From Psammoneis japonica (Eukaryota), in contig QPGO01000035.1 of assembly GCA_008632985.1 (NCBI GenBank), positions 111,899 to 175,898 on the forward strand: DNA of 64,000 bases, in the 5' to 3' direction. The stretch's first letter is position 1, and every line of letters begins with the position of its first letter. The notes under the pieces are model-generated. The model had not been told where the DNA came from. It saw only the letters and a program-made list of their open reading frames with translations, and ran no database searches. A program made the translations under genes and the position numbers. Shown in pieces: positions 1-46,595 of the stretch.

Positions 1-583
1 TTTTGACCTTTTTCAAAACCGTGGTCGTCTTTGGGGCTAGAACGAGTTTTAGATAATTGCATAATTGCGTATTAACTTGATATTTTTGTTTCCAGTTACT
101 GTATAATGTACCGTAGCGAAACTTTTTGCGCCTCGTCTCAAATCTCAAGAGTAGATATCGTCGAAAGTGCACCTGGGAGCCAAAGTTCTGCACGACTGTG
201 AAATGGAAAACAATGAAGATGCACCAGCGTGTTCGAGACAGTTATGAGGCTGACGAATGCACAAGTTGACCAGACTAGACATGTAGCACGTGAACCTTTC
301 TTGTGAATGGGTACATAACGGTTCTATTGCAACTTACGTGAATGAAAAACAAAATCCACACCAACACATGGCACATGTGTACAAAAGCACAACTCATTAG
401 AGATTAACGCAAAGTAAGAAAGCCTACTTTGACAAATCTATCCTCTATTGTGTTAGAGTGCTACGATATCCATGAAGTTAAAGGGTGCTTATGAATTGAA
501 AAGAATGAAAAGCCACACATCAATGGGCTCCCATTCCTTCACTAAAGTTCACCACACACAGAGAGAATCACCCATCACGATGC

Positions 584-1096
584 TTAGAGCTCCGCCGCAT
601 CAGCCTGCTTTTGAAGGTAATCCAAAAGCACAGTCAGAGCGCGAGTCTCTTCGCCAAAGTCGGTAATGACGGCACACGAAGTCCTGACGGACTTCTTGAC
701 GGAACCATCATCGTCGAGCTTGGCTAGACCGCACCAGGCACCCAAGTCCTTTCCAGATTCCACCATGACAACATGGACTTCACCCTCTGCGCAGAGAGCG
801 CGAATCACTTTTTGTACTCCTCGTTTTCGCAGTCCTTGGCGAGGCAGCAGAGACGAGCGGAACGGCGATCAAGAGCCTTGGCACACTCATGCAAACCCTT
901 TTTGAGACCATCGTGAATGAGAGCCTTTTTGAGAACCTAAGTTATACAGCAAAAACCAGCGATGTTAGCACGGAGTAGCTTTCTCGAATTTTCAACTTTT
1001 TTCGTTTGCAAAACTCACTTCCTTGAGAGCGTCAAGGACACTCATCTGGACGTCCTCCATCTCAGTGGTAACAGGTTCATCTCCGGCGTCAGACAT
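584..1096 (-). CDS. RPS12: 40S ribosomal protein S12 (eS12); 2 exons, intron 937-1018; apparent 1-nt homopolymer frameshift near 810
   Basis: Manual translation [67 protein letters not shown] joins ORF 584-808 ([14 protein letters not shown]...[10 protein letters not shown]), which is typical eS12. Confidence 0.95.
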
Positions 1097-2226
1097 TGTG
1101 GCAAACGATGTAGTTTGATGACTCTCACACTGCAAAAAGGAAAGCAGGTTCCTCGAATGAGAGCAACGACAAGGTCGGCGGCATTTCAGCGCCGCACAAA
1201 ATTCAAATGGGTGCTGAGCTCATCTTTTAGTACGGCCGGTAACAACAAGAGACGGCTGGTGGACAGACCTTGATCGATACATGTTGTTAGTTTGGCTGTG
1301 TATTGTCAACATTGTGTGTTTTGGCCACGTTCCAGAAAACTCCCAAAACAAAAACGGCATTTATGACGTCATATTGACGTACGTCAGTCTCGATTGCGTC
1401 GTTCCTCCAATGAGATTGATTTGAATTTACTCTATCGTTCAAAGAGACCTTTGTCGCCTGCCTTCGCGCCAAAATTCACGTGGAACGTGGTAGACTTCTC
1501 GTAGTATTCCGTTGCAGTAGCTTTGTACCAGTCTTCTAACATTCATAAATATCAGGTATTGAAGAGTATCATTCGTGATGCGCCTCATACCAGTTCGATG
1601 CGCGCGCGCACGATATGCCTACGTAGCGCATGTACCACAGTTTACGAGAGCTCGGCCCAAGAGGGCATTTTTCTCGAGTACCGCAACCTACGCAAGTTCT
1701 ACGATGGTCATCGGTACCAAACGCACTTTTTCACGTTGAACTCGGGAGCATTTTTCTCGCGGAGGCATTGTGCTCTTGTTGTTGACGATAGCGTGCTTTC
1801 TTTGTCATTGATCAAAAAACGTTCGATACCCTTATTGCCAGTGTTGATCAATAGGAGCAAAATTCGAGAGAGGCGAATCCTTGAAACCGTGTCATTGTTG
1901 AAGTCTGCGCCTTTTTGATTCGGTTCATTCCCATAAAGGCAATACGGAAAGAGGCGTACGTGCTCCGTCGTAACAAGAGTACTGCAGCTTTGCGACAAGT
2001 GTCTCCTGGAGGTTGTCACACGTCTCAATCGTGACAACGTTGCATCAAACCGGGAATCCTAAGATCATATCAAGCTCTCAAGGCTCTCTGTGGTGAAAGT
2101 AGGGCAACATCCGACAACAAGCTCCGTTAGGAACAAACTCAACCCAATAATTACGAGGCGAGAAAGACCCTATTTGTTCTTTGAACCGAGACCGAGTTAA
2201 ATCGAGTTCTCTTGTTTGGCAACAAC

Positions 2227-4407
2227 ATGTCAGCTCCGGACGTGGTGTCATCAAAGGAGCAGGAAGGTCAGAGCTCTTCTTCAGGCGACGCTATGAACGT
2301 GGATCAGGAATCTACATCCCAACAGAGCCCAACTTCTGTTGAACCTGTTGCTGTCAAGATGGAGGAAGACACCCATCAGGCAGCAGAAGTGACACCGATA
2401 TCATCCACCGCTCCTATTGGTTCTCAGCATGGTTCCACGGGTCCCTCTGCCCCGCCGTCTACACCTGTCAATGTTGGAATGGGGGTTGCGGCCCCAACGC
2501 CTGCTGCGCCCGTGGCAGCCGCGGATTCCACAAATAGCCACTCGGGCCCAGTCGACTTTAAGGTACTGAAAAACTCCATGGACGAGGCTCTCGCCTCCAT
2601 GTCTAGTGAAGATGGGAAAGACGCGTCAAAGGACGACGCGGAGAAAAAGCAAGCCGAGCTGCGAGCCATGTATCTGGCTGGGTTTCGTGCTGCCGCTCAG
2701 GCTCAGCATCAACAATCCCTAAAGGAGAACTTTGAGAATGCCAAGAATGGAACGCCCGCTGCTCCTGCGGAAACCAATGGCCCTGTCCCTGCTGCTACAC
2801 CGAGTGCACCGCTTGTGCTTCCAGTCAGTGGGGCCGCAGGCGTGCTTGCCCCTGCCAACACACCCGTCAACCCGGTACCATCGTCACCCACAGGCGCAAC
2901 TCCATTGCTTGCAGCATTGAGAACGGGTTCTCCCATTCCACCGCTGAGAGCAGGATCTCCCGCCCTGGCACCAGCAGCAACCACCACTACGACGACCACT
3001 ACAATCCCTGTCACTCGGCGAGTCACGAGAACATTGTCGGGCAATCTCGCTTCGTCGTCTCCTGCGGTTGCATCGTCGTCCACGTCCTCGTCTCCTAGCA
3101 CGGGCGGTGGATCAGGGCATTCCAACCCGTTTCCACGAAAGCTTATGGAGATGTTGCGAAAGGAAGATCCGTCGATCGTGTCGTGGTTGCCAAGAGGGGA
3201 TGCGTTTGCTGTGCGGGATTCTGAAAAGTTTATCAGTGACGTGTTGCCGAGATATTTTCGACACACCAAGGTAGGGCCTGTTTAGCTCGCTTTGTTTTCA
3301 GCTGATGCATTACGACTTGTTCTCACCCTCAACTTTGCTTCTCCTTATAGCTTACTTCTTTCCAGAGACAACTGAACTTGTATGGCTTTAGGCGAATCAC
3401 AAAGGGTCCAGATGCGGGAGCTTATCGACACGAGTTGTTTCACCGAGATCAGCCAGAACGCTGTTTTCAGATGAAGCGATCCAAGCAAAAAGGAGGCGCG
3501 TCACCCTCGTTGAAACCCGGAGCAAGTCCAAGAGTCCGATCGAGCTCGATTTCATCCGTTCCTTCTCCACTGACTACACCCAATGATAGCCCCAGTTTGT
3601 ATTCCCTTGAGCAAAGCCCCGGTACTCGGGGTTCGCAAGGTCCGACCGTGTTGACGTCTTCAGTCATGGGAAGGTTCGTAAAAATGTATACATTATGCAT
3701 TGTAGCTTTTTGCTTGCTATGTTGATTCCTAACGTTTATCTTTTCACTCTTGCAACAGTGCCCAGCCCCAGCATGCACCAGAACAGCACCAAGCTCATTT
3801 CCGAACTCTTTCCAGTGGCGGCGTGCCCAATGATGTAGCTTCTGGTGTAGCGCAGCCGCAAACGGGGCTTGGTATTTTAATGAATTCAGGTACCTTGGGA
3901 AACAATTCTGCCGCCGCTCCTGCTGCAACCGCTACTCCTACCTTGGCTAGTTTATCTCCTACACATCGCAAATTGATTCAAGAGGATCTAGCCGCTCGCG
4001 AGCGACAAGCCAGTGCGTTGGCTGCTGCTGGTATGGTGGCCTCGTCAGTAGATCAGACTGCCAAGGTTCCGACGAACGGCACTGGCGCTCCAGACATAAC
4101 GATGCAGGGGTTGCGTGCTCCTCCCGTGTTGGCAGGCAGTGCTCCATTGACAACGTCCCCGGGCGGAACACCTATGGAAGGCACAAACTGGAACTTGATT
4201 GATACAACATTGACATTGGAAGACATGGAGCTAGACTTTGCCAAGCTTTTTGATCCTGCGCATGAAGTAGCGAGTATGCAAACAGAAGGAACCGGATGGC
4301 CAAGTGCGCCAATAGCGCCTGACATTTCACTCCAACCGCTAACACCAACATCGGTGGGTGGAAACGCGAATGGTGCTTCCACGGGGACCAATGGGAATTC
4401 GTCGTAG
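2227..4407 (+). CDS. HSF: Heat-shock factor (HSF-type DNA-binding domain) transcription factor; introns ~3271-3350 and ~3674-3758
   Basis: [61 protein letters not shown] across a GT-AG intron; low-complexity flanks. Confidence 0.93.
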
Positions 4408-4598
4408 ACGGTTGAAAAACACAAACTGGGATTGTGTGGATGTTAGAGCGTGCGGGAAAGGACCGAGAACTGTACAAAGTGGTCGATAAAGGGTAAAGAC
4501 AGACATGTCTGCTATATGTTTTGAAATGAAATGTGTTCCGTGAAGAAGAGAATCCTAGAGAGAAAGCAATCTCGAAGTCCTTGTACCTTATTTTTTTT

Positions 4599-5033
4599 TG
4601 GTGAGCAAGTCAGTAAACTATGTAAATATTATCTTATTACTATCAGCTGCTTCAACGTGGGTTCTCTTCCTGCGCTCTTGTCACTACCTGGGTAAGCAAG
4701 ACTATCGCCTCTTTCTGCTCCACTCTCCATCTGCTGCTGTGGGTACCTGGGCAAAATATTTTGTTTTAAGCGTTGCATCAGCAGCTTATCAATACTCTAG
4801 ACAGGGTCTGCAAGGCTATCGCGTGACTGATGCCCTTGTCCATTTAGTGATGGAGATAGGGCCGTAAGCTGGCTAACCTCTAAGTCGTAGGTACAGTTGC
4901 GTCCAGGCTCAGGAGGTCCTCGACTTTGGTTCCAGCTTCCAGATTTTTATTCGCTTTCTTCGAAGGCTTCGAACGAAATTCGAGCGAAGCTCACTAAAGA
5001 ATTTACAGCTTATTCGCCTAAACGACATAAACA
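4599..5033 (+). mobile_element. LTR-like repeat copy A (TG...ACATAAACA), TpA intact
   Basis: Aligns by eye to 7555-8085 from GTGAGCAAG at the start to ACATAAACA at the end; TG..CA termini; no convincing TSD or internal pol found. Confidence 0.6.
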
Positions 5034-5079
5034 TGTTTACATTCAACATGCTCTGCTAAAGTAGAGCACACATTTCTAC

Positions 5080-8050
5080 GCAGGTCACTCTCCATCCAGC
5101 TTCGGTGTGAGAGGGAAGTTCGTCCCGCGATTGCAATTCTGCTGAATCCAACCATGATCCACTTTGTTCCATGTCTCTTCTTCACCTTGCTTGTTGTTCC
5201 TGGCAAGCGGGCCATGGCAACTTCTCTGTTGCTGTCAAGCCCAAGATTCTAAGATTTGAAGGGGAGCGTCTGCGTGTGCAACGCAACTGTCTGTCCGAGA
5301 GCATCTCTGAGCAGCTGTGCCAAGATCTTTGCTCGCAAGGTGTCTTTGACCACAGTGAAGACACCCAGCACACCACACTTTGCCACACAAAGGGTGGACA
5401 TGCGGGCACACGCATCAAATCCAGCAAAAGACAGCTCTCTCTGCTCTCCCAGATGTGGTCACAGAAGACCCAAAGAGAAAGGAGAGTTCAATCTTTTGCA
5501 CCAAGCTCATGTCAGGGCCAACTTACAAGAACACCAGGGAACTTGTCAAAAAGGCCATTCCAAACTGAGTCTTGGAAGATGATGCTGGAACAACTCACCT
5601 CTGCGCATTGGCTCCTTGTGCAGCGGCCTCAGCAAATCACATGGACATCGCTGGCTGACATTGTTGTTGTCCAGCTTGTTGAAGCAAAGGAGTGGTTTCT
5701 CTGCAAAAAAAAAGTCTTTGAAAAGAAACAAAATGTCAAGAACAAGCTCCAACTCTGTGCAACACACAATGAAGAAGAAATTGATGACATGGTCTGTGAC
5801 AATCGACAAGGCAGGCGACCCTTTGCCCGGGGGATGCACTGTTTCCCCCTGCATGCATCATTTGTTCAACAAGAGCCCCTCTTGAGATGTCTTCTGTGCA
5901 TCCCACCTCTGCCAAGAGCAAGTGCATGATGCACCCCAAAGAGGACATGGTTCATCAATCTCTCTTCAAGGGACCACCTGCAATGCAGCACCAGAGGGAG
6001 GGACAAACTGCAACCAACGGTGCAACACAAGCTGTGACAATTTCCCAAACTGCAACTTGAATCAAGGAGATGCTTCTTGCAGTGGCAGCTGCAATGCAAA
6101 CTGTGATGACAGTTGCAATTCTTGTGACAGCTGTTGCGATGACACCAGCTGTGCAGGCACTTTTTGTTTTCCTGTTCTCCTCTGCAATGGTCTGTTCAAC
6201 AGTGGTTGCTGTGACAGTTGCAACACCTCCTCTTGCAATGGCTGTGTTTGTGATTCAAGCACAGGAGAGGATCAAGCTGCAATGAAAGCTGCGATGCATC
6301 CCCAAACAAAATTTGTCCTTCACCAACTCCCGCCCCCACTGACACCAAGAAGACCCAGTCCACTGCTGACTCCTGCTCTCACTCCAAGGCCATCTCCCAC
6401 CCCCACTTCATGGCCCACTTTAAGTTCATCATCTTTGCTGACAGTGAGTCTTGCACCCACTGGGGTTTTCACGACCAACACATCACCGAACGGGGGCCAT
6501 TGCTCTGTGTGGTCTGGCACCAGATGCACAACAAAAAGCAACTCACCAGAAAGTCCAGCATGTTGAGATGACACATGTGAGTGCCATTCATTGAGTGGAA
6601 CAAGGAGTGAGCTCTGGGTGACAACCATGTTGGCAATTTTGTCATCAAAACACTTGTGAACATCAGACAGCAGTGTGTGCCTGGGTTGAAAAGACATTTG
6701 GACAATGGCTGAGCCCTCTCCTGCTCTGGTCAGCTCTGATTTGGCCTGCAAGGCACCCATGGCAACACCAATGAGATCTTTGGCTTTGTCACAACAGCCT
6801 GCATTGAACATGAGGCAGGATTTACAAAATGTGAGCAAAGCAAGTTTTCCATGTCAACAATCATGTGCACGGGAGGAGGACCTCTCATCCTCTGTTTTTG
6901 CACCGTGCAGATCTCAGTTGGTTCAAGTCAGCAGATGACACCAGCTGCTGCATTGATGTTTGACCAGCTCTCATGAGCCTCCACTCTGTCGCACAGCAGC
7001 AAGGCATGCTGGCAAAGGATCAGCACCAACATTCTACCAGAACTCTTTTGTGGTCTTGGCACACCTTGCAGATCACCTCCCAGCACTTGAGCTGGTGGTG
7101 ACAGATGGCTCCTGAGTTTGAAGTCAGCAAGGTGGCTCATCTTTGGCCTGGTGCCAAGATTGCACAATCTTCTCAGTTGCTGTGAGCACTGCTTCTTTCT
7201 CCTGCAGGACATGAGATGGGTTTGGGCTCATCTTCAACCAGGTTCATGCCTCTTGTGACATTGGTGTGTGTTTTGGCACGTTCTCCAACAACAGCCAACA
7301 TCAGGTGCAAAAGTGGCTGGTGCATCAGATGCAATGTGCCAGCAGCTCATCAATGCTCACAACAGGGCCTGCAAAGATGCTGGGCAGCTGATTTCCATGT
7401 CTGGCCTCTGACAGTCATGCCCTGTGTCCAAGGGGAGCTCAGGATGCCTTCCTTGCACACTGCACACTTGCTTTTCATTTGTCTCTCTCTTTGATTTTTG
7501 AATGCTTGGCTGCCCACAGCCACAAAACAAACAAGTGCTGCACAAGGTCTTTTTTGTGAGCAAGACAGCAAACTGTGCCTGTGCCCACTTGTCATTGACA
7601 TCAGCTGCTCTTTCACGGGGGGCTCTTTTCAGTCGATGAGAGGACCCCCTCTTCTTGCTGCACCCTGGCTGGTGTGCTGTTGTCATGGCACTACACTGCA
7701 AACCAATGTCAACTGGACTGCCACCTTGTTCTGTTAATGGAGCAACCTTTGCACCCAGCCGCTGCTGCAGGAATCTGGTGCAAAGCGGTGGGTGTTGGAA
7801 GAAGCACTCTCTTTTCTTGCTTGTGCACCAGCAGCTTGTCAGTGCTCCAGATGGGGTCTGCAAAGCTGTCGGACAACTGCTGACACCCTCATCCATCTTG
7901 TGGCAGAGACAGGGCCGCAAGGCAGAGCCAACCTCTGGTCGTGCAGTGCGTCCAAGAGCGCTCAGGACCGGACGTCATCCTCGAATTCGCTTCACAGCTT
8001 CCTCCTTCCAGATTTCGTTGCGTGTTGTGTGTGCGTCGTTCTCTCTTTGA
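5080..8050. other. TpA- and CpG-depleted degenerate repeat block 1
   Basis: Only a handful of TA dinucleotides in ~3 kb; TG/CA-rich; overlapping Tyr-free, Cys/His-rich ORFs in all frames. Confidence 0.85.
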
Positions 8051-8085
8051 GTTTTTATAACTTATGCGTCTGGATAACATAAACA
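7555..8085 (+). mobile_element. LTR-like repeat copy B, TpA converted to TG/CA
   Basis: Diverged homologue of 4599-5033, e.g. CAGCAGCTTGTCAGTGCTCCAG vs CAGCAGCTTATCAATACTCTAG. Confidence 0.6.
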
Positions 8086-8867
8086 AATATATACAGTATA
8101 CAGAAACTTATTATTGTGTGACGGAATTTATGTATTAATTAATGCCCTAAGTTTCAATTATTCACTATTGGATTGCAACGCCAAAATCCTCGCCGCGTCA
8201 ATCGGATGCTTCCATCACCAACAAGTTGTGCTCCTATGAACGTTGCAAGAAATCTGAGAGGAAAAGGTCTCAATTCTGCTCCCTCTCTACTCTAGAGGAT
8301 AAGAGAACCATTCAGTCGAAGACCCTTTGCCAGGAAGTAGCTTTACGTTTGTCATCACACCTTTGAGCAATTACCGTGTATGAATAGTATTTTGAAATTT
8401 TTATTTTATTATTCATTCATTAATTAACTTATATTTACTTTCAATAAGTGAAATATATATTATTTAAAATTTATATATGAATACAAACATGTTTTAGCGA
8501 CACGTGCGCCACAAAAATTCGAGGCGGAGCAGAAAAAGCGAGACGACCCGCAAGCGACGCCTCACTGCATGCTGCCGTCATTCTCATTCGAACGATTACC
8601 GTACGCAGCTACTCTCGTGTTTCTTGTTGTCTTTTGTCGCTCATTGCATAGTCGGCCATCATTCATGTCAACTAATTCATAACTGGTTTGATAAAGCAGC
8701 GGCACCTTGTTTTTATTGGACAGAGTAAGAAAAAGAAAATGTGTTTCAGTTCGTTGTCAAGTGGCGAGGCTGTTTCCTCCGAAGAGCCACTCGCTGAACC
8801 ATAACGCCACAACGTATTGCATACTTACGCGGTTCTTTTTATCGCTATTCTCTGCTCTTATAGTACC

Positions 8868-11047
8868 ATGTTTCCTTCTCAATATTTTACTTCCAGTCCA
8901 ACGACGGATTCTCTCGGAGGAAATGGTTCTGTAGTGTGCAGCGACCCCGGTGCTCCGGATCCAGCGCAGACAACATTTACGGGAATGGAGAATGTGCATC
9001 GTGATCATGCTGCGCATCATGGCCATCAGCAAACTGGGTCAGAATCTGATTCCGACATTCCGGCTAGTGAGAAGTTAATGAGAATGGAGGAAGAATCATT
9101 TTACTCAAACTCTCAGGTGGATACAGGAGACGACAACATTTGGGGATTGCTCAGCGGTGTTGGAGGAAACATGTATGAATGGTAAGTTCTTACGTTTCAA
9201 CTTTTTTTTCAACGTGCCATTTGTGAGGATGAGGAACTTCACAACTAGATAGTAGATCCGGAGTGCTATGTTGTAAATTCATATGCACGGTGTCGAGAAA
9301 TATTGGAACGTGAAACTGACTCGCACAGATCACTATAATATGACGAATGACGGACTCGCTGAAAATCACGCCCCCCTCGTGCTGTCTAACACGAGATTTG
9401 TTGTTCCGTCCACTTTAACTAGGTATGATTTTGCTGTGTATGGCCTTCTTGCACCTGAGATTGGACAAGCGTTCTTTCCACAGTCCTCGCCAGAGTTGCA
9501 GCTCATAAACTCTTTTGGTGTCTACCTTGCGGCGTTTTTAATGAGGTAAGAGAGCCTCGCGTCTCCTTAGCTGATGTCAATAGCGTCTCTTTTCCGGAAC
9601 AGGCACTCATAATCGATTTGTCTTTTTCACATTGTTTGTTCAGACCGCTTGGTGCAATAATGTTTGGAGAAATGGGAGATCGGCTGGTCGGCAGAAAGAA
9701 CGCGCTTGTGTTTTCCATTGTGCTAATTACAGTCCCGTCTGTGTTGATGGGAATGCTACCAACGTATGAAATGTGGGGTGTGGCTGCTCCAATTCTTTTA
9801 GTGATATTGCGAATGCTTCAAGGTTTAAGTGTCGGTGGTCAACTGGCTGGAAGCTATGTGCTGAGTATCGAGCAGAGCTCTTCCCGCAATCGTGGCTTTC
9901 GTGGGAGTATTTGTGACGCAAGCTCGGTACGTTCTTGGTTGACGCCGTAACGTATCAAGTTGAAGGACTCTCTGACATATGTATCATTGCGATATCTGTT
10001 ATGCTTGCTCCTCTTTAGGTTGGTGGCTTCTGGGTTGCATCTGCGGCCACGACCATAGTACGTACGGTGCTCACGGAAGAGCAAGTCAACAACTGGGGCT
10101 GGCGTGTTCCGTTTTGGTTGTCACTTCTCATCGCGCCACTCCTTTACCACATTGTGAGCCACACGGAAGAATCAAAGTTCTGGGAGGAGCGCAACGAACA
10201 AAAAGAAACCGAGAAAATTATCCGGGAAAACAACGAGGAAGAATCGAAAACACCAGCTGTGGTTGACCTGGTTTCGTCTCCATTTCGACGTCGTCAGCTT
10301 CTCGGAATGATTGGTGTTCTTTCGGCTACCTGCAGCTCGTTTTATACTCTCTTCCTCTTTACTCCCGTGTACTTGTCGAGTCTCCGCCAGCACTTGAGTG
10401 AGGCAGATGCCGATTTGCTCAACTTTGTGACTGTTGGAATCTACATTGTCCTGCTCGTTGCATCCGGAAAGTTGTCGGATATGTTCCCGCACCGAATGGA
10501 CTTGATGAAGCTTGCGCTCCCTGCGCTCATAGTGGGATGCCCCGTAATGTTTGGTATGTTCGAAAGCGAAAGCTGGTGGGGAATTTTATTTGCTCAGATC
10601 CAGTTCGCGGTTGTTCTTGCCATGGTGGAGGGCAGCAAGGCAGCCTTTGAGGTTGAACTCTGGATGAATGACCCTTCTCTATCTTTCACTGGCGTTGCAA
10701 TTGGACACAACCTTTCAGCGACATTGTTTGGTGGAACTATGCCTTTAGTCGCTACCTTTTTGTATTATCGGGCTGATGAACTCTGCGGTGACGACGAAGA
10801 CGCTTTCTGGCCACGCCTGATTCCTGGTCTGTACGTGTCGCTTCTCGGTTGCGTTTCCCTTCTTTCTCTCAACTATCTCATCAGACACCCACATGATGTC
10901 ACATCCGGTGAATTGAAAATACGAGAGCAACAGGAAAAAGACCGGAAGCAGTTTCGGAAAGCGGAGAAGAAGAAAGCAAAGAAGCGAAAAGACTTAGAAA
11001 TTCAGCTGACTCAAAAAACTGAGCCGTATGTTCCACCCGTCATGTAA
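8868..11047 (+). CDS. MFS transporter, metabolite:H+ symporter (ProP proline/betaine-like); introns ~9182-9422, ~9546-9643, ~9927-10018
   Basis: GNMYEW|YDFAVYG..FFP, FLMR|PLGAIMFGEMGDRLVGRK, LRMLQGLSVGG and WGWRVPF motifs; multiple TM helices. Confidence 0.92.
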
Positions 11048-11300
11048 CAAGTACATTATACGCAATCGGTGGTAACTAGCTGAGACCCGTGCTGAACATA
11101 GTATAATGTTAAAAAACAACAAGGAAACATCTCTACTGCGTGGATGCGATGTCACAATTATTCTAGTTGTACTTCAGTTACGGATCTGACTCCCCCGAAG
11201 TCTTACGCATTCGAATGATTACCAGCGGCTGCGAAGTTACAGGAAAAAGTGACCAGCTGGATAAGTCAGTAGGGAAAAGCAACGGCTACAAGCCTTCAAC

Positions 11301-12626
11301 TCAAACCCAAAACACTGAGGCACGTACCGGTTCTACAGTCATTGGTCTCGTCTTTTTGGCTTCCTCAAACAGTGTATATATCCAGTTACAGCTCCAATTC
11401 TCCGGATCAACCCAACTTCTCAAATGATTCGATACATACTCCCTATCGGCGAGATAGTGCAAAGGCATACAATGAAACATAAAAATTTTGCCAATGCACG
11501 TGGTTGCATTTGTGACTTGTGACCGTATCATGTCTCTTCCCCGAAACGTGGGCCCGAGACGACCAAAAGTGTGGAATTTCACTTTGAGTGACGCAAAGGG
11601 TTCCATACCTAGCAGGCGATTAAAAGTTTTCTTCTTGTCTAATCCACAAAAAGGATAATGAGGATGCATCAGCGTCTGGCCAACTGAATTCTCATCCCCG
11701 TCAGCCTCGCCGAGAGCGTCACTATCATGAAACGATGGTGGAGATGCAGCATAGGGTGTTTGTGGTGTTGCAAGACCTAAGCGAAACTGCTGATTCAACG
11801 AGAACGGTGCAATCCTCAAAAGCGTGCTGAGTAGAAACACCCACAATCTGTACATGGCCGCCTCGGCATGAATCGAGACTCCACCACGGGGCATCCTGAG
11901 TTCATCCAAGATACCATCAATCCAAACTTGCTCGGTAGGTCCGCCCTCGACAATACCTGATCCCACATGTCCCATTAAGTAATAGGCGCACAAGGCATCA
12001 CCCACATAATCTTGTGCCGTCACGGTCAAGTTGTTATTGGTGGTTGCGTTCCCCGCCCCAGCACTTGCATAGATTGGAGGAATGGAATAAATAGCCTCCT
12101 TTAGAATGCTAGCGTGGAGCTTGTGAGATTTTGTGTGCTTCTGATGTTGTTCAATTAAACACGAAAAGCTCGGTTTTACGTCCGTGGGGGGAGTTTGGTC
12201 GTTGTCTTCATCGAATGATGTTGAATCATCGATTGCATTTGCTAGCTCAGCGACAGGGTCACAGAAACGAGAACTTGGGGGCAATGACGCTCGTAGACAA
12301 GCAACGCGCTCCTGAACAGTAGGGAGACAATAAACTGGGTCTTCTCCATCGTCCATGTTAGCAACAGGAGCTCGCACAAACTTCCACGACGAAAACACCC
12401 GAGGGTCTCGCAACGAAGAGTAGTAGTATGTTTGAGTCATGCGTTGACAGCGTCGCATAAGATCAGATTGAATATCCTTCAGAGCTGACATGCTGGTAGA
12501 TCCGAAGCAAAGACAGTCATGAAACGAAAGAAACGAGACAACCGTCACCCAGCATTCTGACGGTAGTACTGCTGCCGCTTCTTCATCCTCTTTGCGGTTG
12601 TCGATTCTGCTCTGCGTTGGATCCAT
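11301..12626 (-). CDS. Hypothetical protein with possible N-terminal F-box-like motif
   Basis: 441-aa intronless ORF; LPSECWVTVVSFLSFHDCLCFGSTS resembles an F-box. Confidence 0.7.
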   Translation of the reverse strand: MDPTQSRIDNRKEDEEAAAVLPSECWVTVVSFLSFHDCLCFGSTSMSALKDIQSDLMRRCQRMTQTYYYSSLRDPRVFSSWKFVRAPVANMDDGEDPVYCLPTVQERVACLRASLPPSSRFCDPVAELANAIDDSTSFDEDNDQTPPTDVKPSFSCLIEQHQKHTKSHKLHASILKEAIYSIPPIYASAGAGNATTNNNLTVTAQDYVGDALCAYYLMGHVGSGIVEGGPTEQVWIDGILDELRMPRGGVSIHAEAAMYRLWVFLLSTLLRIAPFSLNQQFRLGLATPQTPYAASPPSFHDSDALGEADGDENSVGQTLMHPHYPFCGLDKKKTFNRLLGMEPFASLKVKFHTFGRLGPTFRGRDMIRSQVTNATTCIGKIFMFHCMPLHYLADREYVSNHLRSWVDPENWSCNWIYTLFEEAKKTRPMTVEPVRASVFWV

Positions 12627-12893
12627 CTTTAGTTTGCCCTATGCAATCAATTAGAAAGGGCGGTTATGCCGCAATGACGACAATAACTATGGAAACAACA
12701 GCACTCCACAACAACAACCGAAACCTAACTGCGACCGAAGTTTTTGTGAAAATGAAAAAAAAAATCCGCAGAAAGAAAAAAAATAAAGCAGGAAGGTGAA
12801 AACGTGTTTGTCGCAAATAGGGGCCCGTGCTGTTTAGGTGCCTGGCCCTTCGATTCGAATCGATCGATCGTTTTTTAGACGGCGATGACAACG

Positions 12894-13263
12894 CAGTGTT
12901 AACTAATTGTTAGGATCGATTGCAATCAGCCTCACTTTGATTGCAATCGCTGTTGCAAACTCGATTGCAATGACCTGATTGTCGGGAAGGAGCCGAGGTC
13001 GCAATCACAATCGACTGTTGCAATCGATTGCAATCGAAATTCGAGCTCTTTTTATAGCTAAAATAAGTAAAATAGCTCGATTTCTTCGCCTGCGGCGGGC
13101 TTTTCTCCTGCGCCCCTGCGCGGGGGGCGGGGCGATTGCAATCTGTTCGTCAGACCGCCGCCATCGCTGCGCGATTGCAATTAACCAATTGCTGTTCCAC
13201 AGCGATGCAATCGACTGATTGCAATCTGATTGCTGCAGAAAACTTTGCAATTAGTTAACCCTG
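12894..13263. mobile_element. Non-autonomous hAT-like element (MITE), 370 bp
   Basis: 16-bp TIRs CAGTGTTAACTAATTG / CAATTAGTTAACCCTG (1 mismatch); perfect 8-bp TSD TGACAACG (12886-12893, 13264-13271); many internal GATTGCAAT(C) motifs. Confidence 0.93.
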
Positions 13264-14104: not shown

Positions 14105-15392
14105 TTATGTTTCAGCCTTCCTCTTCTTTCCAATGTGATCACCATCTCCGTTGTTTCCTTCCCACTCGCCACGAGCAGCTGCTGCGGCGATTTCCAGCTC
14201 TGACACGTAGAGTTTGCTCATTTCTTCTATTTGTAAACTTCCCTTACCCTTGCAAAGGTCCAACAGTGGTAGTTGAAGTGCCTGACTCCAGCTAAAGCTT
14301 TAGCGATGGATGAAAAAGACATTATTATTCACAAGACAATCCAGTCTATCCAAAAGTACAGAGCAATAACCAAGAACGTACCTAAGGTTCCAAGGGCCCT
14401 TTCCTTTGACTCGGTTGATGGCGCTCAAGCGAGCTGAGGCCTGTTCCAGGGTCTGTCCACCGGAAGGTAATTGGCACCTTTCATAGCAACAGGGAAACTC
14501 TGTTCCAACACAAAAATGTTTGCTTGCGCAATCTCTTCGACCGTATAGCTTACGGGACAGTCTCTCCCTGGGTTTACAATGTTTGGTTTGAGCGTAGCAC
14601 CTTCCATGTATACACCGTGATCAATCATGGATTTGAATAGCTCCGACTGTACTCGGATGTTTACCGCAATCGCTTCATCCAGTGTGTGAGTTCCAGAGAG
14701 ACTGATATCTGGCTCTACAATAGGCATAATGCCCTCACTCTGGCATATAAGAGCATAACGTGCTAAATCGTGCATGTTGGCCTGGATGGCAAGGTCCGTT
14801 GGGCAACCCTTGTATGTGTCAATCACCAAGGGAGACCGCCACTTTGCAAAACGAGCACCAGCTGCATAATATTCCTTGCATCGAACAGCAAGTGAATCAA
14901 GGCCCTGCATTACCGTATCACCGTTTGTTCCAGGAAGAGTGTAAACCTTGAGATGGGGTTTGACGCCAGGGACGATACCACGGTCTGTCATCACCTCAGG
15001 AAAGGGTTTGCCGTTGGTTGACGATTTCTGTGTAATTCAAGAAATCCAGTTCAAAATAGAGCTGTCAGCGTTTGTGGTTGTGGAACGTATTGAGTTCATC
15101 AAGTTTCGTTCCGTACCTGGTACAGAGTTTCTGGGTCCAAAATTGCAGCACTCAAATACTTTTCATTTCCTTTTGCTTCAAAAAGCATTTGGCGATATTG
15201 TCTCCTATTTTCTTCCGTGTTCTCGATACCCACTCGTTCGAAACGACTCCCAATCGTGACTGCACTCTCGTCACAAGCAGTGATACCCTTTCCAGCGGTT
15301 GTAACTTTGGCAGCAGTCTCGGCGAGTGCTTTCTTCTGTTCGGCTGTGAGGAAGCTCCCTCCAAACGAGAATTTGCGTTGGCGAGTTTCCAT
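14105..15392 (-). CDS. FBA: Fructose-bisphosphate aldolase class I; introns ~15029-15117 and ~14299-14381; apparent frameshifts
   Basis: GKGITACDES, ENTEENRRQYRQML, QGLDSLAVRCKEYYAAGARFAKWR, LARYALICQSEGIMPIVEPDI, LKPNIV and PWNLS|FSWSQALQ motifs. Confidence 0.93.
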
Positions 15393-15990
15393 TGTTTTAC
15401 AACAGGACGTGTACTAAGAATATATCGATGACAAATGCCGTGCTGATAGAGTGCTACGAGCAGTAAAAAGAGAAAATGAACAAAAAGTGAGCACAATTTC
15501 GCGTAAGATACTCACTAGGTTGCCAAGATCCCGATAGCTATTTTCCAAAACACCCTTTCGTCAGAAAATTTGGCTAAAACTGTTCGCAACAAACAGTTCT
15601 CACTTCAATCCATACACCTATGTCTCTTTACTGTGCACAACTACAACACGTGAGACTTGCTTGTTGAAGACAAGCCAAGGGAAACAACCAACCAACATCC
15701 AACGATGGTGCCATCATGGCGGGAATTCCTGCGCCACATTTTGAGGTCGCGCGTTTTTCGCGCGTGGTCACGAAACCAAAAGGAATCCGGAATTCCACTT
15801 TCTACTTTTTCATCCTCTCTCGCCTCCATCCAAGCCATTCCGAAAATTTGGCATCAAACGGCAAGCCCATGTCATTTCCTCGAACATCGCCGACGGTCTG
15901 AGACGTGTTGCATAATAACTAAGAGCAAGTGATTCATACAAGTGCATATTCTCTCATTACGAGACATAGTTTAACGAAAGTGGATTGATT

Positions 15991-17493: not shown

Positions 17494-18109
17494 ATGGCAA
17501 TCAAGACACAAACCAGCTCATCAGACAAAGAAACGACAGCCGCCACCATGGCCCCTATTGCCGCTACTTGCGCTCTCGGTGCAGGATGTTACTGGGGAAC
17601 CGAGAAGTACATTCATGTTGACTTTCAAAAGAAATTCCCTGGCAGCATCAAGAGTTGTGCAGTTGGTTTCATGAACCCCGACCCAAATGGCATGGAGAAT
17701 CCCAACTACCGCCAAGTTTGCTCAGGAACGACAGGACATGTGGAAGTTTTATTTGTGGAATTGAACGACCCTGACGAGCATTACGAAGAGCTTATCAAAT
17801 TCTTCTTCATGTTTCATGATCCGACAACGTTGAATCGTCAAGGAAACGATGTAGGAACACAGTATGCGTCCTACATTTTTACGGGTGATGAAAAGCAAGC
17901 CAAAATTGCAGGAAAAAGTTAAAGGCGAGCTCCAGACGCTTGTCGACAAAAAGAAGGTCAAATATAGTGGTAAAACTGTGTCGACGGCTATTGCTCCTGC
18001 GACCACCTTTTATGAAGCCCACGAAGAGCACCAGGCCTATCTTCAGAAGAACCCACTTGGATATTGCAATCATCGATTCCGTTTCAAAGAGTGGCCCGAG
18101 CTCAACTAA
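17494..18109 (+). CDS. MSRA: Peptide methionine sulfoxide reductase A (Cys form); apparent frameshift near 17915
   Basis: GAGCYWGTE, NPNYRQVCSGTTGHVEV, HDPTTLNRQGNDVGTQY and FYEAHEEHQAYL motifs. Confidence 0.95.
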
Positions 18110-18423
18110 AGAATTGCGGCTATTCAGCAATGCGGCATATTGGAAATCTATACTGTACTCAGACCCCGTATTTAGTATCCCTTTATGCTGCTTAAGATGC
18201 AACATATGTAGTGCTAGTGTCGAGACAAGGAGCAAAAAATCCACACACGGGCGAACAACAAAAGAAGCTCCTTCATTTTTCGCTCGTGTATCGATTCCTT
18301 TACCGCAGTCTCGTATTCCCCATTTCCCCACCCAAAGAATTTCATAAATGGCAAAAATTTTCTCTATCAAAAGAAGAACCCTCCAGGTCTTTCGTGTGTT
18401 GGAATCCTTCCCAACCTGCGAAC

Positions 18424-19387
18424 TCACAAACTCCGCAGCCGAAACGAATCCATCGTCACTTTTACACTTTGCTTCACAGTATCGGTCCAACCAATCCTGT
18501 AAAGATACACAGCATCGAAACAAACGAGAAGTGAAAGGATCACAAGACCATAGCTGACCGCAGGACGAATACTTTGACTTTTGCTCGCGTCCTCCTCATT
18601 GTCGTCGTGACTCATATCCTGTGGCGCATCTGGAGCCAAAGCCAATTCTTTCGAAACAAAGAACGTAGACTCTCTTCCTCCATGGATCTTGGCTTTCTCG
18701 GTGAGCCCGGGGGTTCTTCTATTATTCGTTTGTCGTCTACAAAAGGAGTGACAATGAGCTTGCCGTCCTCTCCTGAAATGAGACAGAGCGAAGTTTTCGA
18801 TACCTCCGTACCGACATAGGATATAATCATATGAGACAGATGTATTCCAAAACTTGCTGCCTTCTTTTTGAAGGCTTCATTGCGTCAAACGTTGGTTTGA
18901 TTTCCCCATCTTCGTTTTCGGCGATCTGCGAACTTTCTCCCTGGTGTCGGAGCTGCTGCGAGTCTTCCAATGTAATGAAGGTCAACTGATAGATGCCTAC
19001 AACATGACAAGCCTCAATGAGCGTCATCGCCTGGAATTCTTCTTCTGAATCTTCGAAACGTTCCCAATATTTTGTAACCAGTATTGCGCGATCGGCTCCA
19101 CGAATTGCTTTCGACAACTGTATGAGGTCGACAGTGTCAAAAATCTTGACAGTTACCCGTTTTTGTGAGAGAAGATCAGTGACATTGTTAGCATTCAAGG
19201 ATTGAGTAATTGCTGCAACTCTACTTCCAGATTTCAAGAGCGCGTGAACCATGATTGGACCTTGTGATGCGTCATCTTGAAAGACCACAGCCACTCTTTC
19301 TCGGCGACGACGACGTTTCCTTTTACTCTTTGATTCACTTGCACTATGCCTTTCCGAATCGTTGCTTTTTATCGAAGGCTCGACCAT
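18424..19387 (-). CDS. NmrA-like Rossmann-fold protein with C-terminal TM segment, paralog 1 (frameshifts)
   Basis: ALLKSGSRVAAIT..LSKAIRGADRAILVTKYWE..EEEFQAMTLIEAC; homologous to 20058-20971. Confidence 0.7.
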
Positions 19388-20057: not shown

Positions 20058-20971
20058 CTAGAAGAGAAAGCTATTGTTCAAAAAGGCATCTCTCCCCAGG
20101 CTCCAAGGATCGGCGAAGAAAAGAAGAAACGCGCCAAAGCCAATGCCTAGCATCCAGTGAATATCCACCTTAGACAGCTTCAGCTTCCCAACGACGCCTC
20201 CACTAGGGCTAGCGTCTTTGAGAAAACGTCCTTGAACACTGACAAGGCCTTCGTCGGAGCTCATCGAACAAACACTAGAGGTATCAGTCTCGTCACCTGA
20301 CGAAATCGTATTCGACGATGTGCCATAGAAGGGCACAAAAAAACCTTGCCGTTTTCTCCGGTGATAAGACATAACGATCTCCTAGAAATGTCTGTATCTG
20401 CGTAAGATGTGATCATATGGGTAAGGTGCACATCAAGTTGCAGGGCCCTTTTCTTCGTGTGTTCCATGCCATCAAAGGTCGGGTGTACTCTGCCTTGTGC
20501 GTCGACGACGACTTGAGAGGATAGGCCCTTATCACGGAGGAGTTTTGTGTTTTCAACGGTGTTGAAGAGACAGTTGGAAACACCCGCAACATGGCAAGAT
20601 TCGATGAGAACGATAGCTTGCTCCTCTTCTTCGGCACTCGCAAACTGCTCCCAATACTTTGTCTCGAGAACGGCACGGTCGGCACCACGAATCGCTTTGG
20701 ATAGCGCTCTATGACTAGTCGTGTCAATGATTTTGATGGTAACGTGCTTGTGTTCAAGGAGGAAGGCCTCCATTGGAGGATCCACTCGTTTCGTGATTGC
20801 AATGACTCTGCTCCCATCCGCCAAGAATGCTTTAATCATCATCCGCACCTCGGCTGCGTCACGCTGAAATACCATGGCAACTTTTTCCTGGCGTTGGCTC
20901 ATGCCTTTATCATTGTTTGAAGAACGGCGAGAAGTTTTCATTGTTGTTGAAATTGTTGTTGCATCCGTCAT
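20058..20971 (-). CDS. NmrA-like Rossmann-fold protein with C-terminal TM segment, paralog 2 (frameshift near 20345)
   Basis: AFLADGSRVIAIT..LSKAIRGADRAVLETKYWE..EEEEQAIVLIESC; tail WMLGIGFGAFLLFF. Confidence 0.7.
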
Positions 20972-21383
20972 TGTTGTGCTTTTTTGGTCGTGGAAAATGA
21001 CAGTGAGCAAAAATTGGTGCGTTGTGTCTTTCACGCCCGGAGTTGAACTTGGGAAAAAGAGCACCTGTCCAACGGCTAGTCTCTATGTAGGGTATAGGAA
21101 TAGAATATTCATGATTAAAAACGTACCATTCTTTATGTGGTATAAAGATATATTGATATATTAATAATTTGATTCATTTTTATACGGGACCCTTAATTGA
21201 AAATTATTCAGTAAAGAATAAATAATATGCGTTACAAAGCTAGTACTTCCTATAAAGTTTAGGCGCAACTGCTACGGTGGGTAGGGAATCACTTTATTTT
21301 CGTTTCTCCGGCCAATACCACAGCCAAGATTGTTTGAAGAACTCTCTACTCTAGAGTAGAGAGTAGATTGAGAGAGAGGCTTG

Positions 21384-30129: not shown

Positions 30130-32900
30130 AATGCAACACATTCACCACGCAAGAGAGCTGAACCCGTTGCTTCGACAGCAACAACAACCCTTGACACACA
30201 TCATTTTGTGCAGCCAATAACAATTGCCAGGGGCAGGTTGGAGATGATGCCATGAAACATGCAACACAGTTGTCAACAGACATTGAGTTCAGTGCATTTG
30301 TGCATGTGAAATTGGTGGGGGGGGGGGGGGGGGGCATGTCTGTCACGTGCCTGATGCCTGGTGTGCCTTTCTTTCCCCTCCTTTGTGAGTTTGGTGACAA
30401 CAATTTCAACAACACTTTTCAAGGCTGCTCCCCAGGTTGGTTGGATGAGTCCAATCTTAATTGAGAATGCACCTGGCAGACTTTGTTTGGCTGCATTGCT
30501 GCATTTTTTGATGGTGTGGCATCATTGGCCTGATGGATGATTGGTGGCCTGCATGTTTGCTGCACATTTTCAAACTGCATCAAAGATCATTTCTTTTGGG
30601 GGGGGGGGCAACGTTGACAATTTCTGATGTGCTTGATTCTGCTGAGAGTGCACCTGTCAAGACAGTGCTCTGGCAACAAAATGATCTGGCCATGATGGTG
30701 AAGAATCCTTTCAGGCTTGGTTCAGGCCTGCATGGGAGCCACTCTTATCTGATGTCAATGTCAACAAGATTTGTCAAGCACTGCACTTTTCATCTGACAA
30801 CAAGTGCTGGCTCATTGCAGCCAAAGCCCCACAAGCACAATGAGGACAAAGCCAGCATTGGTGGCAAACATGCTCTTGGATGGGCACAAATGACAAAAGA
30901 CAAAACAAGGACAGCCCAAAATCACTCCCATTGTTTTTTGCTGGCAACCAGCAATGTGTGCCCAGCTGCAGCAACCCAAAGTTCATCTCCAATGCCAAAA
31001 GTGCCACCCTGTCTTAGCCCTGTGTTTGTAAAAAGTCAGGGAACATTCTCCGCTTGAGCGACATGATTTCCAGAGCTGTGCATCTTGTCCAGCTCCAGCC
31101 CAATCATTCTCCACCACTTGCCACCACACCGACACATGGGACATGCCAAGCTCACTCTCACAAGTGTTCTGTGTGTGCATGGCTGGATGTTAAAATGGTC
31201 TTGCTGTAGTGTGCTGTTGGGGGAGCACAAGAACCTTGCCAAGGCCATGGCAGAGATGCCTTTGGCTCCACACATGAAGAAAAAAATTCTGCACAGGCCC
31301 AGCTGCAGTTTTGTTCACTTGGCCACACATGCAAGGCTTGTTGATTTGCTCTTTTCATGCAAAGTGTCCAACTTGTGACTTCAGGCACACTTCAGACCAC
31401 AGGGCTGTCTGTCACAACAAGCCAACAAAATGGAGATCAGCAGTGCAGTGATTGGAACCTTGCTTGCTTTTGCTGCCTTGCTGTTGACTCTCCTGCAAAA
31501 ATTGGAATGTTGCAGAAAAACTGCCAACAGTGGAATGGGGGCACCAAAAAATGATGGCCCAAGGGGGGATCTCAGCCAAAGGTCAAGTCAATCATGCTCA
31601 CAAAAATGGCCAAGCCAGCTGTGCTTGTGAAAAAGAAGCCACACTGCACACCTTGTGACACATGGTGGCAAGTTTTGACAATCAACACCAGCCATTGACA
31701 AGCAATGCACACATTTTGTCAACCCTCCCTCCCCTGACTTCACTGTGGAAAATCTCCATTCTTCCAACTTGAATGTTGTTGCAAGTGCCATGCAGTCATT
31801 GGGCAATGTGATGACAGGTGGCTGGACCATTTCATTTGACACTGCATGCGTGCTGCAGTTGCAATGTTGCCAGCCCACACCAGACCTCCCATGTGGGAGT
31901 GCAGCACCCACAATGCAAGACAGAGGTGGCCCTCTTCCCAATGGTTTGTGTTTTCACATCCACTTGAGCAAAGCCAGAGAATGAACACTGGCCCATGACA
32001 AACCACTTTTGTCACTTGGAGTCACATCAGTTGCCAGTGCAGTGCACACAAGCACAATGTGCACTGGAGTCAATTGTCACATTTTTGAAACCATTGCATT
32101 TTCCAGCAGTTGCCAATCTCACAAAGTGAAACTTTTGATGACAACAGTGTGAAACATTTGGTGAGGACACTTTGGCAACATTGCGTCTGACATTCTTTTC
32201 TTCTTTTTCAATTGTCGCACAAAACCAGAACAAAGCTGCATGCCTTTGAGTGTGGCTTCTGCCACTTTTTGGCTCCTGGGTGAGAAGAGGTCATGCACAG
32301 CATGGCTTTGGCCACTTTGCCAACCACCCCACTGCATGACACCATGAAGGGAGCAAAGTGACATCTTTGCTCAAGGCAGAGCTTGAGGTGCTTGTGTTTT
32401 TTCTTGTGTTTGCAGGTTGCTGGGACTTTTTCTGGTGTCTTGGATGGGCGTGACTTCACGCCTGTGTCTGGATGTGGACATCTGTGATGGTGTCTGTCCT
32501 TCCATCCCAGAATCCGTGGGAGAGAAGACATCCACAGTTTCCATCCTCACACACGTTGGGAGAGCCAGTGCTGCCTGGCTGACCACTGGAGGTGCTTGAG
32601 CTTCCTGAGAGGTGACCAGCGGGGTTGACCATGGATTCGCATGTGTGGGAAGGCTTGCAAGCCTCCCCAGCCAGGTCACATGGGTCATCACATGGTTGAT
32701 GGGGAGTTTGCACCCACACACATCACAGCACTCGGGTGGGTCTGGTGTGGAGTGCCGCGCCGCTCCTCCAAAGGCAGAGCACGTTGTGGAACTCTGGGCA
32801 CGAGAGTTCCGTGCCATTCAGCATGAATGGGCACACTGACAGCCACGCTCCGGTCTTGGTGCTACGTTGGACAGCTCTGGCCTTGATGTCGGGTGGAGTC
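30130..32900. other. TpA- and CpG-depleted degenerate repeat block 2
   Basis: Near-absence of TA and CG dinucleotides; contains a LINE fragment. Confidence 0.85.
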
Positions 32901-37809: not shown

Positions 37810-38060
37810 CTTTCGACTTATTTGCCAATCCACGATCTTCGTGAACCCATTTTTCACCTTCATCTCGGCTTCTTCGAGGAAGCAACTGATTGCCTGCGGG
37901 TCCTTGGCAGAGGGCTGTGGTCTTTTCTTGATGGCAAACTCTCAGCACGACGCCCAGCGCCCAGCTCATCCTGCACAGAGAGGACTGGGCACCCTTGTTC
38001 TGCGCACTCCCCCTGAAGCAGAGGTGCAGCTGGGTGCTCCAAGGCCACACACGTGGAAAT
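37810..38060 (-). mobile_element. Fragment of a DIRS-like (tyrosine-recombinase) retrotransposon pol, region N-terminal to RT
   Basis: ALEHPAAPLLQGECAEQGCPV and AIKKRPQPSAKDPQA..FLEEAEMKVKNGFTKIVDW resemble recalled diatom YR-retroelement sequence; not database-checked. Confidence 0.6.
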
Positions 38061-38339
38061 GCCAGTTGAGTTTTTGACAGCAAGCTGCCATGTCAGACAT
38101 GCTGCCATGTCAGACAATGAGCTCCTCCAGCTCTGAATGACAGGGGGGCTGCAAGAACGTGCTGCTTCACAGCCCCCGACGTGTTCTTTCACAAACTTTG
38201 CACACATTTCTGCATGACATGGGATCAACCCCACACACTGGTTTGCAGCAAAATTGCCAGGCCATCCATTTTCAACACACCTTTTTGGCTTTTTTGTTGT
38301 TGTGCGCAGTTGCACTTCATTCTCTGAGTGATGCAAGAG

Positions 38340-44152: not shown

Positions 44153-44291
44153 CAGAGGTGCACAAATCGTCTGTTGTCGTTCGCACACGCGCACTTGCAC
44201 ACTCAGCGCGCGCACAAACGACAAAACGATGACATCGTTTTGTCGTTCGTGCGTTGCACGCGGGCGACAACAGACGATTTATGCACCTCTG
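44153..44291. mobile_element. 139-bp hAT-like MITE, nearly palindromic
   Basis: 27-bp TIRs CAGAGGTGCA(C/T)AAATCGTCTGTTGTCG; perfect 8-bp TSD ACCAAGGC (44145-44152, 44292-44299); inner hairpin. Confidence 0.92.
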
Positions 44292-45894: not shown

Positions 45895-46595
45895 ACAACA
45901 AAGCACGAGCACATGTGACAACTTTCCAAAAAAAGCTTTAAGTGTGAAGAACTGTGATGGTGTTGCAAAAGCAGCCATTTGTTTTGATGTCAAAGACAAA
46001 TGTGCTCACCTGGTGTGCAATTTGCAGAGCTGGTGTGTGGAGTCCTGGTGTGGGACAAATGCCCCAAAAATCCCCACCTGGAGCTCTGGGGAAAGCACGT
46101 CATCACAGTTGCCCTGTCCTTCCTTGTTGACTCAATCATGTCCATGCTCCCACCTGCCTCTCAATCATCTGGCTCATCATTGAACACTTTGTGGCCTTGC
46201 TTTGTGGGGTTTGACACAGGTTGACAGGCAAGGCATGTTGGCAAAGGGTCTGGGCATTTTCAGTTTGCACTCTCCGCAAACAGCAAACCACACAACTTCT
46301 TGTGTCCTTGGCAAGGGCAACTGTGTGTGCCCATGATTGTTTTGACACCCCCCTTGATTTCTTTTTTGGCCATCTTTTAAACGTCTGCCATGACAACACG
46401 CAATGTGCTCTGCAGCACTTCTGTCCATTGGCTTGGTTGGTGTGCAGCACCACCTCCTTGACACATCCATTCTTCAACACACAGCAAGGGGCAGGTGTCA
46501 CACTTTTGGCTCAGCTTGTGTTCACCAACGGCACCTTCTTGGGAACTGCTGCTTGTGTGCATCTGCCACAAATTTGTTGGTTGTTGTGTGCTTCA
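45895..46595 (+). repeat. Diverged repeat copy 2, homologous to 38340-39690 but lacking most of its ~0.7-kb central part
   Basis: By-eye alignment to copy 1. Confidence 0.85.

Follow-up and report, generated by a model that had tools for sequence, protein, structure and literature searches.

Hypermutation directed at the TpA dinucleotide has been described in one alga, the chlorarachniophyte Bigelowiella natans: in its mutation-accumulation lines, 230 of the 231 mutations in two integrated viral regions are A>G or T>C and lie on TpA (Mettrop et al., bioRxiv 10.64898/2026.01.13.699255, 2026). The same preprint reports 124 clusters of TpA-poor, CpA+TpG-rich windows in the B. natans genome, most of them unannotated, and names an ADAT2-like DNA adenine deaminase as the authors' candidate, a proposal only; its main text nowhere mentions CpG, diatoms, or stramenopiles (10.64898/2026.01.13.699255). 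Full-text literature searches for TpA-specific hypermutation returned that preprint only and nothing comparable for diatoms. What has been reported for diatoms concerns methylation: silenced transposons are methylated via DNMT5a, Phaeodactylum tricornutum that has lost DNMT5a lacks DNA methylation and its young transposons are de-repressed, and many diatoms have DNMT4 enzymes related to RID, a factor of fungal repeat-induced point mutation (RIP) (PMC9998398). The subject here is a stretch of 64,000 nucleotides from the diatom Psammoneis japonica (GenBank assembly GCA_008632985.1, contig QPGO01000035.1, positions 111,899 to 175,898 of the forward strand), referred to below as the window. It contains at least four non-coding blocks marked by region-confined, strand-symmetric, near-saturating transitions of TpA and CpG to CpA or TpG that leave the purine/pyrimidine pattern unchanged. 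The blocks, in coordinates of the window, are as follows.

Block Z1, 5080-8040, unstranded: almost TA-free and CpG-poor, with 7 TA, 46 CG, 341 CA, and 315 TG in 2960 bp.
Block Z2, 30200-32850, unstranded: 7 TA, 22 CG, and 630 CA+TG in 2650 bp.
Block Z3, 37830-48520, unstranded: 21 TA and 99 CG in 10,690 bp; holds a direct repeat pair.
Block Z4, 55260-59150, unstranded: 10 TA and 32 CG in 3890 bp.
Start of a fifth block, 63681-64000, unstranded: 1 TA in 320 bp; continues beyond the window end.

The converted blocks make up 32% of the window, and TA gaps of 200-1781 bp are confined to these five zones. Z1 to Z4 together (20,190 bp) hold 45 TA and 199 CG, against the 817 and 1100 expected from the dinucleotide frequencies in the rest of the window; the observed/expected ratio is 0.04 for TA, 0.17 for CG (0.03-0.2 in block cores), and about 1.8 for both CA and TG. 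Mononucleotide composition is the same in the blocks as in the rest of the window. What is missing is matched by what is in excess: Z1 lacks 228 TA+CG and has 230 CA+TG too many, with a pyrimidine-purine (YpR) fraction of 0.2395 compared with 0.239 outside, and over all blocks the corresponding figures are 1673 and 1700, with a summed YpR fraction of 0.2404 compared with 0.239 in the rest of the window. Since the balance of losses and gains is closed, TA and CG steps have been converted to CA/TG by transitions, which is not what avoidance or selection would yield. Both strands are equally affected (2294 CA and 2315 TG in the blocks), and the order of CA and TG contains no runs that would point to strand processivity (runs-test z -0.2 to -1.2). 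The surviving TA of the blocks are biased in their flanking bases: 36 of 45 stand in TTA/TAA, compared with 665 of 1667 outside the blocks (odds ratio 6, p 9e-8), and 13 of the 45 are TTAA. This bias suggests that the process prefers certain flanking bases, or that the survivors have a different origin, such as a separate source of new TA.

One of the blocks ends within a repeat, of which another copy escaped conversion. An earlier note, made from the letters of the window alone, had described two similar sequences at this place, termed copies A and B, as a before/after pair; a third copy lies between them.

Copy A, 4563-5051, unstranded: outside the converted block, of ordinary composition; extent from local alignment to B, with an earlier core of 4599-5033.
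Copy B, 7524-8101, unstranded: the converted copy (earlier span 7555-8085); its last ~60 nt (8041-8101) are outside the block and keep TA.
Copy C, 7303-7470, unstranded: a third, partial copy of the A/B core within block Z1, detected by purine/pyrimidine-coded BLAST.

Copy A is situated between the end of an open reading frame (ORF) with an HSF domain (4407) and block Z1, about 30 bp outside the latter; sliding windows place copy B at the 3' end of the 3-kb block. The reported homology of A and B is borne out by each of three methods: MAFFT gives 72% mean column identity; unbiased blastn (+1/-1) aligns the cores 4774-4940 and 7824-8002 at 70% identity (E 1.6e-15); and a transition-tolerant local alignment of A 4563-5051 with B 7524-8101 has 313 identical columns, 109 transitions, 46 transversions, and 131 gap columns, with a score of 54.6, whereas unrelated or reversed sequence scores 13-19 when scored more strictly. 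The six string pairs quoted earlier as examples are all present in the sequence. The three copies were aligned with one another; a profile of them recovers copy C (nhmmer E 2.3e-35) and finds no further family copies in the window. The A/B pair is absent from the repeat-search listing of the window at seed 12, and most matches of a purine/pyrimidine-coded self-BLAST are noise (72-80% identity), with only the A/B/C, Z3, and Z4 repeats distinct. A, B, and C are old local copies of one ~0.2-0.5-kb sequence, diverged paralogues and not twin long terminal repeats (LTRs).

Copy A (4599-5033, 435 bp) has 31 TA, 18 CG, 51 CA+TG, and a GC content of 45.7%; the in-block part of copy B (486 bp) has 2 TA, 17 CG, and 100 CA+TG, and the GC content of copy B is 55.1%. 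The 17 CG agree with the earlier remark that several CpGs survive in B, which they do because B is block-edge sequence. Twenty-five TA of A are aligned gap-free to B up to position 8040, where they read TG at 9 sites, CA at 7, TA at 1, and something else at 8; TG or CA thereby stands at 16 of 25 sites (about ten in the earlier note). Retention from A to B is 1/25 for TA compared with 174/344 for other dinucleotides (Fisher p 1.4e-6), and within the blastn core alone 7 of the 9 TA of A read CA or TG in B. Past the block edge at 8040 the picture is different, with 4 of 6 TA of A still TA in B. Retention of 1/25 inside the block and 4/6 outside occurs within one copy of one age, and the converted unit is the block, not a special copy B.

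Copy C provides polarity. At the eight informative sites where A has TA, copies B and C read TG/TG at three, CA/CA at two, TG/CA at two, and CA/TG at one, so that B and C carry opposite products at 3/8 sites. Discordant products require one change in each lineage if the ancestor was TA and three if it was CA or TG, which argues that TA is older. A second repeat, within block Z3, carries a comparable mark.

Z3 direct repeat pair, 38327-39690 and 45879-46596: 576 identical columns, 78 transitions, and 49 transversions.

Between these repeat copies, 14 of 166 aligned CA/TG are swapped (CA in one copy, TG in the other); the transition rate of 0.111 predicts about 2. Adjacent double transitions of other kinds are no more frequent than predicted (6 of 510, about 6 expected). 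Such swaps are the mark of an ancestral TA or CG resolved separately in each copy. The sequence pattern therefore supports TA as the older state and TA to CA/TG as the direction of change. The earlier note had proposed this direction from the ordinary composition of A; the dinucleotide content of A is indeed ordinary, and the discordance of B and C, the block edge, and the Z3 swaps, as three independent lines, agree with it. Its claim that TA is substituted and not merely avoided is likewise upheld by the mass balance together with copy C, the block edge, and the swaps. The two Z3 repeats are 7.5 kb apart and 82% identical (93% in purine/pyrimidine code), the second carries a ~620-bp deletion, and an old retroelement could have left them as its LTRs, although no pol domain was found. 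Block Z4 has tandem duplications (56763-57057/57233-57532 and 55771-55932/55950-56116) with ~61% nucleotide identity and ~81% purine/pyrimidine identity, as expected from independent conversion.

Loss of TA and loss of CpG do not coincide exactly. At the edges of Z1, Z2, and Z3, stretches of 200 bp that have only 0-1 TA still contain 4-12 CG, and at every well-resolved edge the CG minimum is 300-500 bp further inward than the TA drop. Within Z3, otherwise TA-free and CpG-poor, there is a CpG-rich patch at 44000-44400 (9, 16, and 4 CG per 200 bp). A 145-nt palindrome (44150-44294) is at the centre of this patch and inverted repeats (43465-43654 and 45277-45462) are nearby; the patch may be an island free of methylation, or may mark where two elements join. 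The wider extent of TA loss and the patch in Z3 point to two overlapping, separable processes, and CpG loss may be a second, separate one. Because a CpG deficit is a G:C>A:T change, the spectrum of the blocks is not almost exclusively A:T>G:C.

The earlier note had called the repeat LTR-like, a designation that does not stand: there are three copies at a single-copy locus, and the marks of an LTR element (target-site duplication, primer-binding site, polypurine tract) were not found. Copy B begins with TG and ends with CA, but copy A begins with GG, and the flanks differ (TTTTT and AATAT); neither a primer-binding site (TGG-type) nor a polypurine tract was seen by eye in either orientation. 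None of the 17 ORFs of at least 90 aa in Z1 reaches the Pfam cut-off, the 27 of 50-89 aa give no Pfam match at E <=0.001, and no gag/pol coding capacity (reverse transcriptase, RNase H, integrase) was detected in the block, where decay could hide it. Z1 was also considered as a hypermutated tandem duplicate of the HSF gene plus copy A, and this was rejected (in transition-tolerant alignment, 5060-7520 against 1900-4560 scores 14.4, the reversed control 18.8); the interior of Z1 copies neither that gene nor any other part of the window. A tblastx comparison of all blocks with the rest of the window and 80 metagenome loci gave one trivial match only, and Rfam and tRNA scans of the window gave none. 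At 31-mer resolution the locus occurs once. Window positions 22-12940, including Z1 and its flanks, are covered by a Logan contig of 12,921 nt (word depth 60) with 6 differing letters and 4 gaps. This contig belongs to a separate 31-mer assembly; the run behind it may derive from the source sample, and the contig is thus a second assembly and not independent data. The Z1 sequence is real and single-copy. We infer that the blocks derive from old mobile elements or from foreign DNA that was silenced and has decayed beyond recognition.

Of the described systems, that of B. natans resembles the blocks most in its TpA signature. In that system, as here, TpA changes to CpA or TpG by transitions on both strands of sharply bounded, silent, mostly unannotatable regions, and TpA-poor, CpA+TpG-rich clusters are left in the genome. 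The differences are that the host here is a diatom, a stramenopile, and there a rhizarian; that conversion is saturated here (TA observed/expected 0.04), compared with a Rho of 0.45 reported for the nucleocytoplasmic large DNA virus (giant-virus) region of B. natans; that CpG is lost too in the diatom blocks; and that the targets in B. natans are integrated viral DNA, in which mutation is episodic and its de novo rate raised about 1000-fold, while the diatom blocks are known from their end state alone and have no viral or transposon match. The TpA signature matches that of B. natans, and the diatom host, the saturation, and the accompanying loss of CpG are new.

RIP of ascomycetes is similarly region-confined, near-saturating, dinucleotide-specific transition mutagenesis that permanently disables DNA. 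In contrast to the blocks, in which TpA is destroyed, GC content is unchanged, and TAA and TAG disappear, RIP changes CpA to TpA, lowers GC content, and creates stop codons; it also requires duplicated DNA, whereas Z1 is single-copy and a ~30-copy miniature inverted-repeat transposable element (MITE) in the window is left intact. RIP was rejected for the blocks, as TpA is depleted in them and not enriched. Methylation-driven CpG decay in vertebrates and plants is alike in its loss of CpG to TpG/CpA in silenced DNA, and both the CpG deficit and the gain of CA/TG are observed here; it cannot remove TpA, however, and CpG loss in the blocks is narrower than TA loss. TCG hypermutation in some basidiomycetes belongs to the same type of CpG decay. 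In animals, ADAR hyper-editing and APOBEC3 editing also produce, in viruses and retroelements, deaminase-type, context-dependent clusters of transitions that are used as a defence, but these enzymes act on RNA or single-stranded replication intermediates and are strand-asymmetric, in contrast to the symmetric changes in resident chromosomal DNA of the blocks.

Taken together, the blocks are likely to be decayed silenced DNA in which TpA was edited in the manner of B. natans and CpG was lost, both yielding CpA/TpG. By analogy to B. natans, editing would act on the A of 5'-TA-3', on one strand or the other, and turn it into a base that is read as G, probably hypoxanthine formed by deamination; editing of one strand would give TG and editing of the other CA. 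Diatoms methylate CpG in silenced transposons, and the simplest source of the CpG loss would therefore be deamination of 5-methylcytosine. The outcome would be the destruction of every TA-containing signal (TATA, AATAAA) and the recoding of codons such as TAY, such that the DNA is permanently disabled with no lowering of its GC content. A wider proposal, possible but held tentatively, is that an old chromatin-guided TpA-editing defence is common to diatoms and chlorarachniophytes, perhaps to the SAR supergroup as a whole (stramenopiles, alveolates, rhizarians); in diatoms it would run to completion together with 5-methylcytosine decay, possibly with one deaminase for both A and C, erasing both palindromic YpR steps and leaving a large share of the genome as TA/CG-free fossil DNA.

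Several results weigh against the editing of silenced DNA proposed here. The A/B pair is far from a clean one: A and B differ by 10% transversions (46), with 131 gap columns in addition, the scoring of the local alignment is lenient towards transitions, and 78 of the 109 A/B transitions fall elsewhere than in the TA or CG context of A, which holds 31. The pair is old, with many differences besides the TA changes; of the before/after description, what remains is that A shows the prior state. Enrichment at TA is clear in the retention of whole dinucleotides (1/25, p 1.4e-6) and modest at the level of single sites, where 21 of 55 TA-context sites carry a transition compared with 40 of 167 other A/T sites (odds ratio 1.96, p 0.055). 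CpG loss between A and B is non-significant, 5 of 13 CG being kept compared with 174 of 344 other dinucleotides (p 0.41). The only difference between the two assemblies inside Z1 is a CpG C/T at 5649 and not a TA change, which does not speak for ongoing TA editing. No coding remnant identifies the blocks as mobile or viral: over all blocks, none of the 107 ORFs of at least 90 aa reaches the Pfam cut-off (lowest E 0.0021), none of 150 ORFs of 50-89 aa (150 of 199 scanned) has a Pfam match at E <=0.001, and ORF 6323-6853 (minus strand) of Z1 has no homologue among 416 candidate proteins. For ORF 40754-41503 (minus strand) the sole HMMER match, a 1691-aa tandem-repeat protein aligned in 17 stretches, was judged spurious. 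Lastly, no converted blocks occur in eIF6-flanking metagenome contigs (52 loci of at least 1.5 kb, 401,232 bp), in which one 500-bp window has block composition compared with 78 of 255 windows here. The converted state may be restricted to this lineage or may simply be absent near eIF6, and its generality among diatoms is to be viewed with the same caution.

An unlikely alternative, and the one that survives best, is that the T and not the A of TpA is modified, for example to 5-hydroxymethyluracil by a TET/JBP-type enzyme, and is then misrepaired or misread to give T>C. Dinoflagellates contain 5-hydroxymethyluracil preferentially at TpA. The near equality of CA and TG (2294 and 2315) and the lack of strand runs suit this alternative equally well: because TA is self-complementary, T>C and A>G give the same products, and the sequence is blind to which base was hit. 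What favours adenine is that the only experimental precedent, in B. natans, is read by its authors as adenine deamination, which is likewise a proposal.

It is very unlikely that the blocks arrived TA/CG-free as foreign or mobile DNA, with a composition set by selection in a previous host or virus. The lack of detectable homologues or domains in the blocks would fit such an arrival; the edge, however, cuts copy B, with 1/25 TA kept inside and 4/6 outside, and paralogue A has normal TA only 30 bp from the block. The mass balance and the unchanged YpR fraction fit conversion, as do the 14 swaps between in-block repeats where about 2 are expected, and there is no reading frame for selection to act upon.

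Slightly less credible still is ADAR-type A-to-I hyper-editing of double-stranded retroelement transcripts, followed by reverse transcription and insertion. The discussion in the B. natans preprint notes that ADARs favour U before the edited A (10.64898/2026.01.13.699255). This route is at odds with the strand-symmetric products, with an edge that lies in place within a repeat copy, and with a single-copy locus that has no reverse transcriptase or LTR hallmark; it also leaves CpG loss unexplained.

Reversed polarity, with CA/TG as the original state and RIP-like C>T changes at CpA/TpG as the source of the TA in copy A, is highly improbable. Copy A is more A+T-rich than B, and the pair alone could not be polarised; the 3/8 sites at which B and C are discordant, however, need three changes in this case compared with two under TA first. 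Moreover, the CA+TG content of A is ordinary (51 in 435 bp) and resembles that of other intergenic DNA, and it is the block that is abnormal. The least probable explanation, a sequencing or assembly artefact such as miscalled modified bases, could appeal to the presence of the sequence in one sample only, but 12.9 kb with Z1 in it recur, with 6 differing letters, in a separate 31-mer assembly at word depth 60, and indels, transversions, and paralogues behave as evolved sequence.

The TpA-erasing signature, so far reported for one other alga, is hereby extended to diatoms. If the editing of silenced DNA proposed above is correct, TpA hypermutation is no single-species curiosity, its effects can extend over about a third of a chromosomal region, and its partial coincidence with CpG loss links it to silent chromatin. 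Such blocks escape homology-based repeat annotation, and the absence of TAA and TAG gives rise to long false ORFs in them. As diatoms dominate ecologically and include genetically tractable species, both the enzyme behind the conversion and the way it is targeted are open to direct testing.

The genes that flank the blocks encode proteins with HSF, MFS, eIF6, CRAL-TRIO, ABC, nitroreductase, WWE-PARP, DSBA, and ankyrin domains; the closest named relatives of the eIF6 are from diatoms, Fragilaria crotonensis (92%) and Seminavis robusta (91%). One mobile element in the window escaped conversion.

MITE, 12893-13263, ~370 bp: terminal inverted repeats CAGKGTTAACTAATTG; 8-bp duplication TGACAACG (hAT-like); many GATTGCAATC motifs.

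The word depth of the MITE in sequencing run X1 is about 30 times that of its flanks, and TA and CG are still present in it; since this ~30-copy element was left unconverted, repetition alone is not the trigger of conversion. No further copies in the window score above controls. The loose ends of other MITE copies lead into TA/CG-free sequence, and at one of them both TA of the terminal inverted repeat are apparently converted.

A metagenome contig of 18,043 nt from a related diatom (L003) has six gene blocks in common with window positions 11.9-52.2 kb, in rearranged order. Homologues of window ~49.2 kb and ~23.6 kb are 0.7 kb apart on this contig and 25 kb apart in the window, where the interval includes Z2 and Z3; the synteny is partial and resolves no block as an insertion. 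The runs listed with the sequence, X1 to X3, all belong to one sample, possibly the source, and none of them is an RNA run by its record. In contigs of X2, stretches of 82-100 nt bounded by CT..AC are missing at 934-1017, 14297-14382, 15027-15117, and 15453-15554; these gaps are short GT..AG introns of minus-strand genes, and X2 is transcriptome-like though recorded as "DNA?". Its contigs over the flanking genes look spliced. X2 gives no cover in 4670-8004, which is not used as evidence of silence. A ~600-nt paralogous segment (18737-19333 and 20323-20920, 79% identical in purine/pyrimidine code) joins the minus-strand ORFs 17879-18595 and 20261-21082; it is of normal composition and resembles a local gene duplication.

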